A DNA stretch of 64,000 bases from Kondoa subrosea. Lineage: Eukaryota. The notes under the pieces are model-generated. The model did no database searches and had not been told where the DNA came from. It was given only the letters and a program-made list of their open reading frames with translations. Below, piece by piece: positions 1-33,980 of the stretch. The translations under genes and the position numbers were made by a program. Location of the stretch: contig BCIN01000007.1 of the NCBI GenBank assembly GCA_039545335.1, positions 868,001-932,000 of the forward strand, written 5' to 3'. Every line of letters begins with the position of its first letter. Within the stretch, counting starts at the first letter, position 1.

Positions 1-819
1 TTGCTGCGGTTTGTTGAAATTGATCCATACCCCAGTTCGGAAAGCTTCTAATGTATCTGCTTGGGACAATTCGATTGTCTTTTCTTCACTGTTCTCAGGC
101 GTGGCATCGTTCGCGACTACGGTTAAGCAGGTGAAGCGAGGAGGGAAGAATTCGATTCGATGTTCTGTTTGCATGCTTTCGCCATACGAAATAACTTTGC
201 GAGGTAGATCTACGCTTTTGAGTCCATACCATTTCATGAGTAGATTCCAACCTTCCTGCGGAACAAAAACAGCATCTTCGTTCTCAACCGGTGCTTTGGC
301 TAAATCGTTGTAAGGAGAGTTGGGTACCACAAGAGGAGTGTTATCAATAGGACCGACTGAGGCCATGGTAATATCTGCAAATTCTTTCTCTGCTTGCTGT
401 CCAGCATCAGACGCGCAAGCTGCAGACCATTTTCGATACCAGCTTCTTGCGACAATGTAGCGAGTTTCGCCCTCTACAAGCGGAGCCTTCATTATGGGTT
501 CCATTTGGGCCAGTTGGGCAGCTCCGGAAGGTAAATCATCGTCAACTGTCATGCTGCTAGATTCGCGAGAGAGCGCAGAAAGATTGTCAGGAGCGTCTGA
601 AGAGCCAATGTTGAGTTGCTCCACGACCATAGCACTTTCTGACAGCAAAGATGTGCCAGTATTGGAAGATCCGCGACTCAAGACAGATCCCATAAACTGC
701 TGAGAGCTTGCACTTGGTTCTTCTGATGCGGCTCTTTTGTTTGAAGATTCAGTGTCGTCAGAGGCCAGACTTTGAGAGCGGCTACGCTTCAGACTGGCAG
801 AACCGCTGGACGAGGACAT
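1..819 (-). CDS. Ubiquitin C-terminal hydrolase, Ubp12/USP4-15-like, N-terminal DUSP region (runs off the window start)
   Basis: Manual translation from ATG at 819: MSSSSGSASLKRSRS...LVEGETRYIVARSWYRKW...VGPIDNTPL...VFVPQEGWNLLMKWYG...LPRKVI, which matches the DUSP domain pattern. Confidence 0.8.
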   Translation of the reverse strand, partial: MSSSSGSASLKRSRSQSLASDDTESSNKRAASEEPSASSQQFMGSVLSRGSSNTGTSLLSESAMVVEQLNIGSSDAPDNLSALSRESSSMTVDDDLPSGAAQLAQMEPIMKAPLVEGETRYIVARSWYRKWSAACASDAGQQAEKEFADITMASVGPIDNTPLVVPNSPYNDLAKAPVENEDAVFVPQEGWNLLMKWYGLKSVDLPRKVISYGESMQTEHRIEFFPPRFTCLTVVANDATPENSEEKTIELSQADTLEAFRTGVWINFNKPQQ

Positions 820-1720: not shown

Positions 1721-2046
1721 TAGGTAGACACATGGCGAAAGGTTCTTAATTGCTTGGACAGAATGCATTTATCGATAAGCCGTTGAGCAAGACATGTTGT
1801 CAATCCATCGATAATCTCGCCTCTAAGATTGAGTCGACATTCACTGCTCTATGCATATCTATACGACGTATCGTACTAACCCTTCTTTGCCATGCCTTTT
1901 CATCTCTATATCACCGCCTTCGCTTGGGCTGTATTTATAAGGCCTGTCTTTACTTACTCTCAACCTGTTCATATCTCGTCTTTCATTGTTCTCTACGCTG
2001 GACGTATAGGAAGCAGCTGGTCCTGCTCAATCGCTTTCGCTCATCT

Positions 2047-5017: not shown

Positions 5018-8000
5018 CTATGACAGAACTTCTGACTCCTCGGGCCGGAAGGTCAGAACAGACAGCGTCTACCGTAACTTATCAGATCAAGGCGGTTGAC
5101 AATATGCAGGGACTGACCGTTTTGCCATCCCTCTTGCACAAGATGACGCATTTATCATCTCTAAACGTGACTCGCCAGACAGCTTCACAAGGCTCTACAA
5201 GCTCTCGGATGAATTGCCCTGTTGTACTTCGTCAAGCAAGCGTTTGCTTCTGAGAACAGAAATTGCGTACCTGTTTTGAAATCGAACAATTTGACTCTCC
5301 CGTCGTTTCCACCAGATACAATGAAGCGATCATCAAATTGAAGGCAGGTGACAGAGTTATCGTGAGCACATAGACGATGCAGGCATTCGAGAGTCGCCAA
5401 GCTGAACACGATGACACGACCATCGGAACCGCCAGTCACAAGAACCGAATCCGTGAGCTGAAGTTGACCGACCAGAGATGTATGTCCTTGTAATAGAGCA
5501 AGACATTCACTATGTGCTGCGTCAGTCCTCGCGTTTACTGGTCGGAGAGCCAGACTCACCCTGTGCGAGCTGACCAGATACGAACAGTAGAGTCTAGGCT
5601 TCCAGAAGCTACTCTTTGACCGTCAAAAGCAACTGCATAGACTTGATGGAAATGGCCTCGGAAGACATGCAGACATTGACCAGAATCAATATCCCAAAGC
5701 TACCATCGGAACATGAGCATGTATATCAGAAATGAGTCCAGGTAGCTCACTCGACATGTTGTATCGTAACTTCCGCTGACCATCTTGTTTCCGCTTACTT
5801 CCAGACACCTAACGCAATGCTGATGACCTTCAAGCACTCGGATTTGCCTGCCTTTCTCGATATCCCAAACTCGGATCGTTGCATCTCTGGATCCAGATAT
5901 AGCGATAGGTCGGCCGTGCAAGACTTTCAAACATCGAATAGTAGAAGTGTGACCTTCCATGCTAAACTTGCACAATCTGTTCAAGAGAAAATTAGCACAC
6001 TCCTTCGGATTGCGGGAGGAGTAGCACTCACCCAGTAGACAGATCCCACACTTTGACAACTCTATCGCAACCACCGCTGACAACTAAAGCAGAAGGTTGA
6101 CCGTGACCTCGAGCCGTTCCACAAATATTAGCTTGCTGAGCGCTACTTCCTGTTCCACCTCCTGCTCCTAGACCCATACCGCCATTGGTTCCAGCGCCAT
6201 GAGGAACGAAACCTTCAAAATCTTTAGACGAACCGACTGAAGCAGGTCGATTTCTATAGCTTCTGTTATTCCTCGCTGTGGAAGGTCTACCATGACCTAG
6301 ATCAACCATCTGGATTCCAGTCTTCTTTCCATAAATAGGCACTTCTTCCTCTTCTTCCGTAAGGATTGGCGCATCTTCTCTTTCACCACCTTTGCTAACC
6401 AAAACCAAAGCCCAAACACCCATCGTATGACTTTTCAATGTTCTCACATAAGTACCAGTATTGGCTTCAAAGACATGGACTAAAGAAGTAGCCATGCCGA
6501 CAACGATCCATTCATCATCGAAACCGAGGGAAGTAACCACTCCGTCATCTGCACTAGCTTGAGCTGATAAAATTCGACCTGGTCCTCTGAGCCAATTCGA
6601 CTCGGTTAAGTAAGCCCGCTTGAATTGATTCTTGTAACTAAGTTTTTCTGATTTGGGCTGTTGCTGTTGTGTTAGAATAGAAGGCTCGCTCGGCCGAGTG
6701 AAACTAGCAGAGACGGATCTAGTAGGAGCAGTAGCTGAAAGGTGAGAAGTGCTTGCATGTGGCGTGGGTGGTTCTCGACGGAAAGCAGGTGGTGAATGCT
6801 GGTCATTCGATTCGAACGTCGCCGAGATTGAAGCTGGAGGAGCTGATGAAGTAGGTAAGGAGGACACAAAGTGTTGTGTAGTCGCTGCTGCTGTACTTGT
6901 CACAGGTCGAGGGAAACCTACTCCAGGCATCGATTGAGGTCGAGATCTACTTGGGGAGACGGGTAACGGGCGCAAAAGAGTGGGCTGAGAGCTATTGTTG
7001 CGAGTCAATACTGGCTGTTGAGGTCGCCAGGCATCAGCAAGAGGTGCAGAGACCGGATCAGCCTGTTGACGACCGAAAGTACTATTGGACGATGACGCAT
7101 TCGAACTCGATGTAGCTCTGGCCAGACTCGGTCGACGACCAAAGAAGTCTTGAGGTGAACCAGGAGAAGAATGCTGCTGTAATCGAGGTGCTGGAGGAAC
7201 TTCAAACGGAGTTCTTGGTCGAATAGCAGGACCAGACGAAGGCCTTCTGTCCATAGGTGTGGGTAATCTGAAGCCTTGCACTGAGACAGGTGATTGGAGT
7301 GATCCGCTCCGGGTAGCGAAAGGCGATGTTTGACCTTGAGCGAAATTGCGGACGCGAGGGGTTTGACGAGAAATACCTAAGCCACGCAAGGCCCATTCCT
7401 CATCCGAAGCAGACAGACCAACAATTGGGGTGGTGCTCTGAGTATGAATAGATAGACCACGTCGGTTCATAGGTGTTGCGCGAGTGGGTGTAGTGTCATT
7501 GTTGTTATTGACATTCGCTCTTGAGCCTCTTGGAGGCGTTTGCAGCTGAAGTACTCCAGGCAGGCTAGTAGCTACTGGTCCACTCGAAGTGGCACCACCA
7601 AATCGATGTCTCTCACACATTTGCTTCCAAGTCTGTTCATCCCAAACCAAACTTCTCCAAGTTTTAGACACTCTGCTAGCCCTGACTAAATCCTTCGGAT
7701 CTTCTACGAAGCTGAGGATATGTAGACCTAGTTCTTGAGGTAATTCAGCAATGAAGTCACGTTTCAGTAAAGGTGCGATAAGATTTGAAAGCTGGGCTAG
7801 ATCTGAAGTGCCAAAGAAAGGAAGAATTGCTGTAAGAAAAGCTCTTCTTCCATTTATAGATAGTCTAGGGAAGTCTTTGCAGTTACTTCAGCCGATTGGA
7901 TACAGTATCGACAATGAAACATACCTGAAACTGCTTGAGCGATAACTGCTTCCTCGTCCTCCAGATCTCCATCTTCAGTCGTCCACTGATCATCGTCCGA

Positions 8001-22929: not shown

Positions 22930-25900
22930 ATGGCTCCTTCCGCTCAAGATATAGTGGATTCCTTCTTAGTTGTTGAGAATGCCCAGGAATCGACTCTGCC
23001 TGATGATCTCTTACAATTTATACCGTCCTCTATTTCTTTGCTTGGGCTGGTCAAACTGCTCAGAGATGCTTTGACGAGCGAGCATGAAGCTACTAGAACA
23101 AGAGGTTCCTTTCTCTTCGAGCTGTGCTGTGTTTCAAGGGAATGATGCTTGTTTTGTTCGCCAGGTGTTGGCTTGCTCGCTATCGTCATTAAGAAGCTAC
23201 CAAAAGATGCTGTAAAGCGTCAAGAAGGTTTGATGATCTCTTTACTTTTGGTATGGTGATAATTCTAAGCACATTTGGCGATGGAACAGCCCGAACCTTG
23301 ACGGACTTCTTCACTTCTGAATCTACATTGGCAACTCCATCAATCATAGAAGCATTGGAGGGTCTTACTGCTCTAGCTCAATTACCTACATTCGGATCTG
23401 GAGATGCTCAGCAGGTCTGCAAAGCGTATGTCTCGTATTGATTGTTGTCGAGCTCTCAAATAGCTTATATATGGCAGTATCTTCGAGCACGTCTCTATGT
23501 CGAAATACAATCAAAGCATCCGGTTTCTAGTATACACTCTTATTGACACTCTTCTAGCCAAACACCTTTCCGGTTTGTTTTTCCCTTCAACGTTCTTACA
23601 TTTCACTCAATTTAGGGTATCAGGTCTAGTCAAAATGGGTACACCTTTTCTTAAAGGTTACTGTGCTCTAGCAGAAGGTGAAAAAGATCCAAGAAACCTC
23701 AAACTAGCTTTCTCTATCGCTCGAGTCATCTTACTAGAATGCGACATCACTTCTTGCGTGGATGATATGTTCGACATCACTTTTTGTTATTTCCCAATCA
23801 ATTTCACTCCACCAAAAGATGATCCTTATGGTATCACATCGGAAGAATTACAGATTGCTTTGAGGCATACTTTAAGTGCTACACCTTTGTTTGGTCCTTT
23901 GGCTTTACCTTTATTATTGGACAAATTACAAGCGTCGACGAAATCAGCGAAATCTCAGTCATTGAGAGCGATAGAGGAATGTTTTCCCGTTTATGGCCAA
24001 GCTTGTGTATTGGAAATGGATCGGGTTTTCTGGGAAGCACTCTGCGTTGAAGTAGGTACAATTGCGCCTTGTCGGTTATAATAAGGCTAAACAGAGAGTG
24101 ATAGGTGTTTCATGCTACCGATAAAGAAATGGAAGCACTTGCTTTGACAGCCTTGAAAGCCTTCCTCGCTACTCTCTATCCTGAAGATCAACAAAGTATA
24201 AAAGGAGTAGCCCTCAAGTTATGTGAACACTGTCTTGGTGAACTCAAAGAAGCAGATAAGAGTCAAGCTGGAGTGGCTGTCAAGATCCTTGGTACAGCTA
24301 TAGAAGCTTCAACTCCTTTGGCTACCTTTGTACTAGAGAAGAGTTTGCCCACATTCATGGCTACTTTGCGAGCTCCGGAAGAAGCTTCACAACGACCTGC
24401 TGCTATAGGCCATCTGGCCACCTTACTTTCCTCTCTGCGCAAACTACCAGAACCAAATCTTACACCTTTCGAAGAAGATAAAGATGAATTGATTTCTCTT
24501 CTTGCATCATTCTCTCGGATCGAAACTTCTCGTACACAATCTTTGCAATGCTTGGTCCACTTTGCACACCTCCCATCTTTCCTCCTGGACGTAGAGAAAG
24601 CTTACGTCGTCTCCATTTTCAATGATCTACTGAAGCAACCAGAAATAGCAGAAGATGCAACCGAGACCCATTCAATCTTGTCTGGACTAGTTCAGCTCAT
24701 CGACCTAATACCAAGAGAAATTGAACGTTCCACACTACCTATTCTCTTTGCTCAATTACCTACCGAAGCAACACCAGGCGAAGAAAGTTATAAACTCGCC
24801 TTGAATTCTTTAGCTCGCCTATGCATCAATCCACACTTGACCCAAACTTTCACCTTACGCATTATGACTCGATTTGAATCGCTGCAAGACAAGAGTCAGC
24901 TTCTTTACGCTCATCATTTACTTTTCTCTTTACTTGCTACTTTGAAAGCTAAAACTGCAAAGGGCGATCAAGATCTACCTATTTACTCTGATGGAGTAAT
25001 AGGGAGGTTGTTCCGTTTCTTCCTTGTGGGTCAAGGACATGTGAAAGAAGACTCGAGAATAGCGGATGAAGCTGGTCAAATAGTTGGCGTGCTTGTGAGA
25101 TCTCTGGATGAGAGGTATGACTTTGTTGTTAGCCTGAAGCAAAGGCTCACAAAGAACCAGCCGGCAGGATGATCTGTCAAGGTCTTTCAGCGAAGCAATC
25201 TGGAACAAGAAGCCTAATGAAATGCTGAATCTCGCACCGGGCAACAAGCAGATTGTTGAAAGTCTGGATGTTTTCTCGGTTCATTCTGCCATGGTTCCAC
25301 TGAGATTCAAGCTGATACACGTGACAGGCTTCTGTACTTCCCGCTGAGCTGAATACGCTTATCCTGTACAACTACGCCTTACTACAACTCCGGCCGAGTA
25401 TACTGTTACAGCTAGATCCAGCATCAATATGTCAGATCTACCTGAACAAATCCCTAGAATGGTCAGATGATCTCGTACGAATATCGGCACAAAAAGTACT
25501 CGCTTCTCTGGTCAACAAATGCCTGGATCGTTAGTCTAAGGCATTTCTATATCAGTCCCGTACTGTTTCTGATTTGCGTATACACAGAGCTATCACCCTT
25601 TCTGGCTTCGGTCGACGAATGCTGGACTCAGGTTGCTGCAAATGCTTCGGCAGACTTATCAAACCGAACATATGCTATTCAGACTATAGCTTGGGTCAGC
25701 AACACTCTACGCCTGCAAAAAGAGACAACTCTGACTCTTCCGTGCAGTTAATTCGAGGTCTGGTCGTGAGATCCGATGCTCGAGGCTATACTCTCTTGGA
25801 CAAGCTATTATCACTCTTCGAAGATCAGCAAGTCGGTCGCATAGCAGCTCGTGCGCTCGATATCGTTGGCCGCGACGATGGAGAGGTGCTCTCGAAGAGC

Positions 25901-26519
25901 AATTTCTCAACTATCAAGGTGCGTTGCTGTTGCTGTCTGATAAATGATACCTCATACTGGCGTTAGCTTCTATACAAACAACGACTGTTCTCTTCCACCT
26001 TGTCTAAAATCGTAGCAGGGTATCAAACAACTTCAGATAAAGCTGTCTATCTGGTAGCGCTCTCGGTCTTACTTCGCAACATCCCTCGACAGCTGTCAAT
26101 CTCTGAGCTGCCAAAGGTGATTGCCAGACATCTTCATTGTGAACATTTCCTGATGTTGTTCACAGCTCATGCCTCTCCTCTTACAAGCGCTCGATCTACC
26201 TGACACCGATCTTCGCGGCAACGTGATCGATACAGTAGCTCTTCTCACTCGAGAATCACCAGATGCCGTTTCTGAACATTCATCAACAATCATCAATTCC
26301 CTCTTGACTAACGCACTCGATACCTCTTCAACTGTTTCTACCCGAATAGCAGCTCTGAAGTGTTTAGCTGTCTTCCCTGAAAAACTCGCTTATCTTACCA
26401 TTCAACATCAGAAACTCAATGTCATCAAACAATTGGGTTCAGTTTTAGACGATAAGCGGAAGCTGATCAGAAGGGAAGCAGTAGATACAAGAGCGAAGTG
26501 GTATTTGCTTAGCGGATAG
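22930..26519 (+). CDS. MMS19: MMS19/Met18 cytosolic Fe-S assembly targeting protein
   Basis: EGEKDPRNL, FDITFCYFPINFTPPKDDPYGIT, C-terminal LDDKRKLIRREAVDTRAKW. Confidence 0.95.
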
Positions 26520-32042: not shown

Positions 32043-32100
32043 CGATGCACGATGAACGAGATTCTCGATTTGATGAAACGATGAAACGAGATTCTCGATT
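32043..32100. repeat. Short imperfect tandem repeat with palindromic core
   Basis: GATGAA(A)CGAGATTCTCGATT twice plus CGATG(A/C)A units. Confidence 0.8.
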
Positions 32101-32200
32101 GTCTTTGCCAGGTTCAGTAGCCACAACTGTAATAAATCTTACAAATTTTTAGTTTTGATTCTGAATATGTTTGAGGACCAGGGGTCGACCCATCTAAAAT

Positions 32201-32351
32201 GGGGATATGACCGAGTGGTTAAGGTTAGCCTCATCTCACATTCAAGTTGACGAAAATCTAACTCTTCCCTCAAGGTGCCGTGTTTAGGCAGTTTCGTCCA
32301 AACAGTGATCCGCGGTTCGAAAGAGCAGGAGTTCAAATCTCCTTGTCCTCA
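32201..32351 (+). tRNA. tRNA-Leu(UAG) with two introns: 51-nt GT-AG insert in the D-arm (32224-32274) and 21-nt canonical intron at 37/38 (32289-32309)
   Basis: Spliced sequence GGGGATA TG ACC GAGTGGTTAA GGT G CCGTG TT-TAG-GC CGCGG TTCGAAAGAGC AGGAG TTCAAAT CTCCT TGTCCTC A: all four stems pair, class II variable arm, A discriminator. Confidence 0.9.
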
Positions 32352-32353
32352 GA

Positions 32354-32358
32354 TTTTT
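32354..32358 (+). terminator. Pol III oligo-T terminator
   Basis: TTTTT 3 nt after the tRNA-Leu discriminator base. Confidence 0.7.
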
Positions 32359-32511
32359 GCTCGCCGTCATTTTTGCACGGGGAGATAGATCAAATTAGGG
32401 AAGTAGGAAAGGGAACTATACACCAGCGCCAACAGCTTGACGCAGGATCCGCTGCTAAGGATCTCATCAGCATGTATTGGATGATCCCAGAGGAAACAAA
32501 CCATGACATGC

Positions 32512-33480
32512 TCAATGCCTCCAACCGACTTCATGCCCATTCTCTCGATGCAGTTCCAAAAAACCTCTGAACCTGACTGAATGTTGCTGATCAACAGTCC
32601 AACGTATCCCGTAGCCTTCAAAATGACGAACTTCGACAGCTGTGATGCCATGAGGTAGACTATGAAGGTTCAGCCATGTTGCATGAGAAAGGATCTTGAT
32701 TATGGCTTCATTGGCTGAGGCATTGATCTTGTGCTCTGTCAAGACATGAGATACAGCAAAGCAGTAGGCACTCAACACGCACGAGGACCAGTATTGCTTG
32801 GCCCTAAGACAAAATTCAGACTTGACAAAATAGCCAACAAGCGACTCACAAAAGGAAGATGATCGCTTTGCATGCTTAGAGAGTGCTCTTCCGGCCACAG
32901 TGAGCAGATTCGGTACTCGGCGCGGTTTCTGATGCACATTTGGGTTACGATTATATTCTGACCATCGAGCAAAGATTGTTTCATCGTATTCATGCAGACT
33001 AGTAGCAGCAAAGATGCAATCTTTTAGAGAAGGCGGCAGTATGGTGAACTCTGAGCCTGGCGTTCTCCGACATCGACAGAGTAGCGAGAGGCATTCGACT
33101 GGAGTACACTTTCTTGATATCAGACCAGGCTGCAATATGATTCTATTCATACTCACTATACGGAATGCCTTGAGAGCGGCATGCAAATCCACAACTAGGT
33201 CTTTCCTCAATTGGACGATGTTGCGAGCCAGTGTTTTGGCGTGTGATATTGCTTCAGCGGCCACTGCGAAGCCTTGTCTTGTATACTCTTTCTCATCCAG
33301 TAGATTTGTCACCAATTCAGCACAGCTCAGAGGGCCAGAAACAAGTGCGAGCAGAGGTTCGTTTAAGCAGGTTTCATTCCGTTCCGGCAGCAAGGTATAG
33401 GAGGGCAGGGCAGCTCGCAATGGCTCAAAGGCTGATACAAGAGCTGGAGAAGAATGCTTTTCATCGTGCAAAAGCTCCAT
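32512..33480 (-). CDS. Uncharacterised protein; C-terminal domain resembles the one in plant 'RNA-binding ASCH domain' proteins
   Basis: LTVAGRALSKHAKRS...WLNLHSLPHG...EVRHFEGYGIRW...FRGFLE...GHEVGWRH; the ORF probably reads through in-frame introns. Confidence 0.6.
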   Translation of the reverse strand: MELLHDEKHSSPALVSAFEPLRAALPSYTLLPERNETCLNEPLLALVSGPLSCAELVTNLLDEKEYTRQGFAVAAEAISHAKTLARNIVQLRKDLVVDLHAALKAFRIVSMNRIILQPGLISRKCTPVECLSLLCRCRRTPGSEFTILPPSLKDCIFAATSLHEYDETIFARWSEYNRNPNVHQKPRRVPNLLTVAGRALSKHAKRSSSFCESLVGYFVKSEFCLRAKQYWSSCVLSAYCFAVSHVLTEHKINASANEAIIKILSHATWLNLHSLPHGITAVEVRHFEGYGIRWTVDQQHSVRFRGFLELHRENGHEVGWRH

Positions 33481-33725
33481 ATGAGGTGGTCGTCTGCAGG
33501 AAGGTGTTTCGAGATTTCTCGCGACAGCACATCCAGTGATGATTACGCGTTCTTTGGTACCAGATTCGACTCTTACCAGCCAGTCACCCTTCTCTTGGCT
33601 AATTTGAAGGCTGCTAGAAGGCTTCTGAACCGCGATGAAACCGCACGCAAAGAAATAGAAAACGCTTGACAGAGTATTGTTTTGGTTATCTAATGTACAA
33701 AAACTGCACAGCTCTCATCAATCCC

Positions 33726-33817
33726 GCATTAGTAGGCTAGTGGTAAACTGCGGCTTTGCCAATAGATTCATTTCTATCATAGTAGCCGCGTCCCGTGTTC
33801 AATTCACGGCTAATGCA
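33726..33817 (+). tRNA. tRNA-Gly(GCC) with canonical 21-nt intron (about 33762-33782)
   Basis: GCATTAG/CTAATGC acceptor stem, TAGTGGTA D-loop, CGGCT/AGCCG anticodon stem with TT-GCC-A, CCGTG-TTCAATT-CACGG T-arm, downstream TTTTT. Confidence 0.93.
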
Positions 33818-33980
33818 ATTGCAGTTTCTTTTTGCTCGTCGCCCGTTTACATCCCTTTTTGGTTTCATTTGGCATCAAGGTTATTTCCATTTTTGGCCGT
33901 TAATGTCAAATGAGGGCTGTTGCAATTGTTCTCTGCTCAAATCGCAAGCACAAACAACTCTCTTTTGATATTCATGCGAA

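Follow-up and report, generated by a model that had tools for sequence, protein, structure and literature searches.

A tRNA-Leu(UAG) gene with a candidate mRNA-type intron in its D stem and an ordinary intron at position 37/38

Anatomy and detection of the tRNA-Leu(UAG) gene

The DNA analyzed here, a stretch of 64,000 nt that we call the window, is eukaryotic and includes genes for Kei1, MMS19, a DAG kinase, PDCD2, and F-box/WD40 proteins. The best named relatives of two window proteins belong to the Pucciniomycotina (Microbotryomycetes, Sporobolomyces, Rhodotorula, and Puccinia), one relative (P0008) has an F-box/WD40 protein with 72% identity, and on protein similarity the host appears to group with Pucciniomycotina-like basidiomycetes. 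On the plus strand, at 32201..32351, lies a tRNA-Leu(UAG) gene composed of three exons and two inserts. Exon 1 (32201..32223) provides tRNA nucleotides 1 to 23, ends with G23, and contains the 5' strand of the acceptor stem (32201-32207, which pairs with 32344-32350), the A box (32208-32218), which is located 5' of a 51-nt insert, and the D loop. This insert (32224..32274), the candidate mRNA-type intron, interrupts the 3' strand of the D stem between nucleotides 23 and 24; in this stem, the ACC at 32210-32212 pairs with G32223 and with the GT at 32275-32276 on the far side of the insert. Exon 2 (32275..32288, tRNA nucleotides 24 to 37) contains the remainder of the D stem, the 5' strand of the anticodon stem, and the anticodon TAG (32285-32287), and it is followed at position 37/38 by an ordinary endonuclease-type tRNA intron of 21 nt (32289..32309), which was also called by ARAGORN. 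Exon 3 (32310..32351) starts with nucleotides 38 to 43 and continues through the variable arm (32316-32326), the T arm (32327-32343, with the B box at 32331-32339), and the 3' strand of the acceptor stem (32344-32350) to A73 (32351), and a Pol III terminator-like TTTTT run is found 3 nt past A73 (32354-32358). All of these features are on the plus strand, and both the exon structure and the cloverleaf were obtained from reading of the sequence and from the ARAGORN result described below. The conserved tRNA bases T8, A14, G18G19, A21, T33, GTTC, and A73 are present, and no TTTT occurs anywhere within 32201-32351. An initial annotation of this DNA had listed these elements and described the gene as looking intact. 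Each element was found at the position given there, and the tRNA body, the A and B boxes, A73, the terminator, and the 21-nt intron are all undamaged.

The gene was not seen by standard tools, as the initial annotation had anticipated. ARAGORN, the tRNA finder used throughout, reported no tRNA genes in the untouched window and no tRNA in the untouched region 32151-32400 when introns were allowed; relaxing the threshold for the untouched sequence added just one call, a tRNA-Glu(ctc) with an intron of 72 nt that is not plausible. Rfam gave nothing at its gathering score, and when extended to an E value of 10 over 32100-33900 it found no tRNA and only three chance-level matches. After 32224-32274 was deleted in silico, a check that had been suggested previously, ARAGORN called a tRNA-Leu(tag) that has 81 bases, an anticodon-loop intron of 21 nt, and a full cloverleaf in which all stems are paired; this call starts at 32200, one base before the start at 32201 determined by reading. 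A tRNA-Gly(GCC) gene is present 1.4 kb downstream of the tRNA-Leu gene (33726-33817, plus strand); its anticodon loop is interrupted by an ordinary intron of 21 nt, and a T5 run follows the gene at a distance of 13 nt. This gene was also missed by ARAGORN at default settings and by Rfam, even to an E value of 10. A minus-strand open reading frame of 400 codons (32512-33714) lies between these two tRNA genes.

The frequency with which a deletion of this kind creates a tRNA was measured by removing each GT..AG segment of 35 to 100 nt from both strands of the window and scanning the product for tRNAs. A tRNA call across the deletion junction was created by only 1 of 32,268 such deletions, and that deletion was 32224-32274. 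When the procedure was repeated with longer flanks on the window together with 120 further loci (220,232 deletions in total), 32224-32274 was again the only one recovered in the window.

Splice signals of the 51-nt insert and comparison with host introns

The insert carries signals of an mRNA-type intron, and they are on the same strand as the tRNA. A candidate 5' splice site, GTTAGC (32224..32229), is preceded by the exon sequence AAG, reading GAGTGGTTAAG/GTTAGC across the junction, and a candidate branch site, CTAAC, is located at 32258..32262; its branch A, at 32261, precedes the last base of the insert by 13 nt. This is followed by the pyrimidine tract TCTTCCCTC (32263-32271) and then AAG, together spanning 32263..32274, and the acceptor junction AAG/GTGCCG is at 32274/32275. 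The 3' end of the insert reads TCTTCCCTCAAG, and the acceptor is the first AG downstream of the branch, with no AG before 32273. A 5-nt direct repeat, AAGGT, flanks the insert, with its left copy at 32221..32225 and its right copy at 32272-32276 (plus strand). The initial annotation had placed the insert in the D arm. That location is confirmed and can be narrowed to the 3' strand of the D stem between nucleotides 23 and 24, with junctions that are ambiguous across the AAGGT repeat and give GT..AG in one register only. The insertion site, AAG/GT, marks in class II tRNAs the point where the D loop passes into the 3' strand of the D stem. A group I or group II intron was ruled out because 51 nt is too short for either, and an intron of a host gene on the opposite strand was ruled out because that strand reads CT..AC.

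Host introns for comparison were collected at exon junctions of the MMS19 and F-box/WD40 genes by choosing, at each junction, the GT..AG candidate that gave the best homologue match after splicing and translation. This yielded 10 homology-supported introns (7875-7924, 5977-6031, 5510-5559, 5219-5270, 23426-23477, 24052-24104, 25530-25587, 25695-25747, 25919-25966, and 26117-26165), of which 5977-6031 tied with a 70-nt alternative; the junctions at 23105-23164 and 25115-25160 were left out for their weak scores. A splice matrix self-trained on all GT..AG candidates that bridge open reading frames drifted to coding patterns, produced 449 "introns," and was dropped. The 10 introns are 48 to 58 nt long, a range that includes the 51 nt of the tRNA insert. 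Their donors have A at position +3 in four cases, G in four, T in one (GTTAGT), and C in one (GTCAGC), together with G at +5 in 9 of 10 and T (eight) or C (two) at +6, and their acceptors are CAG in six, TAG in three, and AAG in one. The MMS19 introns 25530-25587 and 25695-25747 (plus strand) have the donors GTTAGT and GTCAGC, respectively, and AAG is the best homology fit for the acceptor of 7875-7924. The claim that the size and signals of the insert resemble those of neighboring mRNA introns is thus upheld: every feature of the insert occurs in real host introns, since T at +3, C at +6, and the AAG acceptor are each present among the 10. These three are also minority forms in the host (1 of 10, 2 of 10, and 1 of 10, respectively), and the fact that both donor and acceptor are of minority type counts against reading the insert as an mRNA-type intron. 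With pyrimidines at +3 in both GTTAGT and GTCAGC, the 5' splice-site rule of this host looks like GTNNGY rather than GTRNGT.

The insert could also be filler or some other small insertion unrelated to introns, with a 5-bp target duplication and a coincidental GT, CTAAC, and AG. The AAGGT repeat would automatically supply the GT and the AG under this explanation, and the window contains no second copy of the insert that would link it to an intron family, the best other match being 12 nt. Conversely, four of the five bases of the repeat are forced in any case, because any GT..AG intron in an AG/GT site gives them. The signals beyond GT and AG were therefore counted separately, with a CTRAY motif accepted at 7 to 30 nt from the segment end. 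Of the 127,898 51-mers in the window, 470 are of the form GT..AG, and 10 of these also have G at +5, a pyrimidine at +6, and a placed CTRAY. Among the 15,381 GT..AG pairs of 40 to 70 nt in the window, a suitably placed CTRAY alone occurs in 9.6%, and its combination with G at +5 and a pyrimidine at +6 occurs in just 1.35%. The insert signals are thus improbable by chance even when GT..AG is granted, which favors an mRNA-type intron. Coincidence also leaves the insert length falling by accident within the narrow 48 to 58 nt of real introns, and the ends of the insert, as read from the sequence, are not inverted repeats. Together with the four other tRNA genes described below that carry comparable inserts, two of which (L071 and L023) have textbook GTGAG..CTAAC/CTGAC..CAG signals, these results make coincidence improbable.

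We investigated whether the insert has the features of a non-canonical tRNA intron, in which a bulge-helix-bulge motif directs cleavage by the tRNA splicing endonuclease. Tests were made on six equivalent registers in each of two arrangements, and pairs were counted both in the central helix of 4 bp and in the helices on either side of it. None of the 12 combinations had all four central pairs, the best having three of four together with one of three outer pairs, and the predicted folds show no bulge-helix-bulge. The motif was also absent from two of the metagenome genes described below, L095 and L111, and no motif is common to these two and the window gene. tRNA genes with more than one intron, including one in the D arm, that are missed by ordinary finders are known from Cyanidioschyzon merolae, nucleomorphs, and Archaea (Crenarchaeota) (PMC3978253), and in these respects they resemble the window gene; the 5-nt junction ambiguity also permits registers other than GT-AG. 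Unlike those introns, the window insert has no bulge-helix-bulge and instead has a GT, a CTAAC, a pyrimidine tract, and an AG at the spacing and length of host introns, a match that endonuclease cleavage leaves unexplained. Ordinary SEN/TSEN introns at 37/38 are present in both the tRNA-Leu (32289-32309) and the tRNA-Gly gene of the window, each 21 nt long. Position 23/24 is not one at which SEN cuts by its ruler mechanism, and unlike a SEN intron, an insert at this position would disrupt the folded body from which SEN measures. We consider cleavage of the insert by the endonuclease to be very improbable.

Two folds were predicted, and neither was more stable than those of shuffled sequences (z scores of -0.97 and -0.14, the latter for the fold of 32208-32290). 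In both, the donor GUUAG (32224-32228) is paired with the branch sequence CUAAC (32258-32262), of which it is the exact complement. This complementarity may be a coincidence, given the T at +3, or may bring the two sites together. In the 32208-32290 fold, the ACC pairs with GGU at 32274-32276, which closes the D stem around the insert, and this would be compatible with an insert that stays in the mature tRNA, where it would enlarge the D loop to 61 nt, with the D stem closed by the right-hand AAGGT. The z score of -0.14 for that very fold argues against this arrangement, as do the intron signals, which it leaves unexplained, and we know of no description of a nuclear tRNA with such a giant D loop. 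Retention is the least probable of all the explanations weighed here.

Intron-like inserts in tRNA genes from metagenomes

Metagenome sequences were scanned with an 18-mer ending in AAGGT, which gave at least 121 matches at at least 120 loci; because of its final AAGGT, this pattern biases matches toward the AAG/GT site and toward inserts beginning with GT. ARAGORN called a tRNA at 109 of the 121 matches listed, one of which (L071) is a miscall as Leu(cag) with a 132-nt intron. No call was made at the other 12 of the matches listed, which include L070, L114, and L120, all cut by contig ends, as well as L003, L052, L050, L112, and L093. No orthologous locus was found among the metagenome matches listed, and comparison of the window with 13 selected loci by blastn and tblastx showed only the tRNA D-arm region to be shared. 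A loose delete-and-scan over the metagenome loci produced 1,616 mostly trivial matches from tRNA-dense contigs, and a filtered version was used instead. Control boundary pairs recovered the same split genes in this filtered run, which is therefore no test of GT-AG specificity because ARAGORN tolerates imprecise deletions. The anticodon-arm region of a tRNA-Ser at locus L074, which ARAGORN calls as Ser(ACT) with a 15-nt intron, contains TACTAAC and ..TCATCCAG/GT.

GT..AG inserts that contain branch-like motifs and occupy non-canonical positions were found in at least four distinct tRNA genes. The first is present in two contigs (L095 and L083) that represent one locus and is a tRNA-Ser(AGA) gene with a 45-nt insert, GTATTT..GCTAAC..AAG, at the same AAG/GT site as in the window. 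The two versions (L083, 230-420; L095, 156-346) show 5 differences over 491 aligned bases. The gene itself accounts for four of them: two fall within its insert, and the other two hit the T arm of L083, where G53 and T55 are destroyed. This distribution looks like relaxed constraint on the gene. The second, L111, is a tRNA-Leu(CAG) gene with an ordinary intron and a 44-nt insert, GTGAAT..CTGATAAC..GAG, also at the AAG/GT site used in the window; its insert holds a T5 run (TTTTT), and no T run is found directly behind the gene. The third, L071 (insert at 148-274, minus strand), is a tRNA-Ser(GCT) gene on a eukaryotic contig of 61% G+C, with an ordinary 19-nt intron and a 127-nt insert between nucleotides 26 and 27 that has the textbook form GTGAGT..CTAAC..pyrimidines..CCAG. 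Near-identical uninterrupted twins of this gene occur in L015, L046, and L097, and its insert may be an introner-type insertion. In the fourth, L023 (insert at 357-410, minus strand), also a tRNA-Ser(GCT) gene, a 54-nt insert of the form GTGAGA..CTGAC..CAG lies in the T loop between nucleotides 57 and 58; the gene also contains an ordinary intron of 24 nt and is followed by a T6 run, and ARAGORN called it only once the insert was deleted. The usual internal Pol III promoter of L023 cannot work, because the insert splits the B box. Intron-like inserts thus recur in tRNA genes that are recognizable as such from their remaining sequence. Such inserts can sit in dead genes, as indicated by the broken T arm of L083, the T5 run in the insert of L111, and the split B box of L023, and some of the four analogues look decayed or untranscribable.

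These results bear on the main alternative to a functional intron, which is that the window gene is a recently inactivated copy: intron-derived or intron-like DNA would have been inserted into a single copy among several Leu-UAG genes, through reverse splicing and recombination, through break repair, or as a small mobile element, would not be productively removed, and would leave a copy now decaying. The signs of death in the analogues, including the existence of intact twins of L071, are in keeping with this explanation, as are the 5-nt direct repeat that flanks the insert and the minority forms of both donor and acceptor. tRNA genes are usually multicopy, which also counts in its favor. The event would have to be young, since the gene looks intact. 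Opposed to it are the absence of even a single damaged base in the tRNA body, the promoter boxes, the ordinary intron, and the terminator, the preservation of all three splice signals at the correct spacing, and the lack of any TTTT. An uninterrupted tRNA-Leu(TAG) gene with an ordinary 32-nt intron, found at L009 (match at 2001-2018, minus strand), provides a further comparison: its D arm and variable arm (TTCGAAAGAGC) are identical to those of the window gene, and the differences in all of the stems compensate one another, a clean covariation that also counts against inactivation. Genes for U6, U2, U1, and U5 with introns of this kind in a yeast of the same subphylum (PMC5855946) also speak against inactivation. 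A young dead copy is a serious contender that we regard as possible, at clearly less than an even chance. Coincidence, endonuclease cleavage, and a giant D loop are each less likely than either a young dead copy or a working intron.

A possible spliceosomal intron in a nuclear tRNA gene

The reading that we tentatively prefer, and to which we give slightly under an even chance, is that the insert is a genuine U2-type GT-AG intron that was gained at an AAG/GT proto-splice site in a gene that still works. Judging from the gene's elements, the A and B boxes, both intact, would direct Pol III transcription of the tRNA-Leu(UAG) gene, which would end at the T5 run. AAG/GUUAGC, the CUAAC branch, and the AG that comes first after it would be recognized by the spliceosome, and the joining of G23 to G24 would restore the D stem. 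SEN would then remove the ordinary 21-nt intron at 37/38 from a product that could be put to use; its step would come after that of the spliceosome because SEN measures from the folded tRNA body. This reading is also favored by the presence of spliceosomal introns in snRNA genes of Pucciniomycotina, the group with which the host appears to be allied. Several points count against it. The AAGGT repeat could be a target-site duplication of an insertion at the DNA level, in which case the GT and the AG come free; the analogues L083/L095, L111, L023, and L071 do not look healthy; and the GUUAG-CUAAC pairing in the predicted folds could hinder recognition.

Our full-text literature searches, whose coverage mostly lay outside subscription journals, found no description of a spliceosomal intron in a tRNA gene, and the excerpts of PMC10275265 and PMC3978253 consulted contain no mention of one. 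The noncoding RNA hosts of spliceosomal introns named in the excerpted part of a review on U6 are U6, U2, U5, U1, and rRNA, with tRNA not among them, and the determinants of insertion into noncoding RNAs are called unclear there (PMC5855946). Introns are present in the U2, U1, and U5 genes of Rhodotorula hasegawae and in the U6 genes of Schizosaccharomyces pombe and many other fungi, and in S. pombe the spliceosome excises the intron of U6, an RNA made by Pol III (PMC5855946). The window insert resembles these snRNA introns in being short and otherwise unconserved, with a canonical donor, branch, and acceptor, and in residing in a small structured noncoding RNA gene, and the Rhodotorula cases come from the subphylum best matched by the window proteins (PMC5855946). 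Although made by Pol III with the help of internal promoter elements, U6 undergoes spliceosomal splicing (PMC5855946), and the window tRNA would be its counterpart in this respect. Unlike the snRNA cases, the host RNA is a tRNA and lies outside the spliceosome, and the usual account, in which reverse splicing occurs into an RNA at the catalytic center, is therefore not directly applicable. The second intron of the gene is of the endonuclease type, and a single precursor of 150 nt would thus have to serve as substrate for two unrelated splicing systems.

Spliceosomal introns have reportedly been found in ascomycete rRNA genes by Bhattacharya and coworkers (2000). They are like the window insert in being mRNA-type introns outside the set of genes transcribed by Pol II and unlike it in their polymerase and host RNA and in that the rRNA transcript has no second type of intron. 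tRNA genes are prone to R-loop formation. Reverse splicing into the single-stranded DNA of R-loops is a route that has been discussed for intron transposition (PMC11146597), and a short class of introners has been reported in fungi and algae (PMC11282704, PMC11146597). Similar to introners (PMC11282704, PMC11146597), the window insert would be a new intron at AG/GT with a short flanking direct repeat. It may differ from them, in that no second copy was found in the 64-kb window, its ends as read are not inverted repeats, and its 51 nt is the ordinary size of a local intron.

A broader proposal would be that the nuclear tRNA genes of several eukaryotes harbor spliceosomal introns that form a genuine, recurrent, and expressed class overlooked by tRNA finders, with insertion in the D stem, at 26/27, or in the T loop and with the spliceosome acting before the endonuclease. 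We consider this generalization unlikely on present evidence. A 2025 paper describes the three eukaryotic intron types as completely unrelated and assigns spliceosomal introns to Pol II transcripts; spliceosomal and tRNA introns are currently treated as unrelated classes with separate substrates (PMC12530127). If the window gene is spliced as suggested, its product would be without precedent among known tRNAs in depending on both splicing machines, and the spliceosome would act on a short, uncapped, and highly structured Pol III transcript outside its own parts. It would also provide a clean natural case of intron entry into proto-splice sites outside protein genes, and the tRNA gene sets of at least this fungal lineage would have been undercounted by standard tools. 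If the interrupted genes are instead dead copies, they would be footprints of intron insertion where selection on the reading frame plays no part. Should the intron be functional, the supply of some tRNAs, here a presumably low-copy Leu-UAG, would depend on spliceosome activity, and the translation capacity of the cell would be linked to it.
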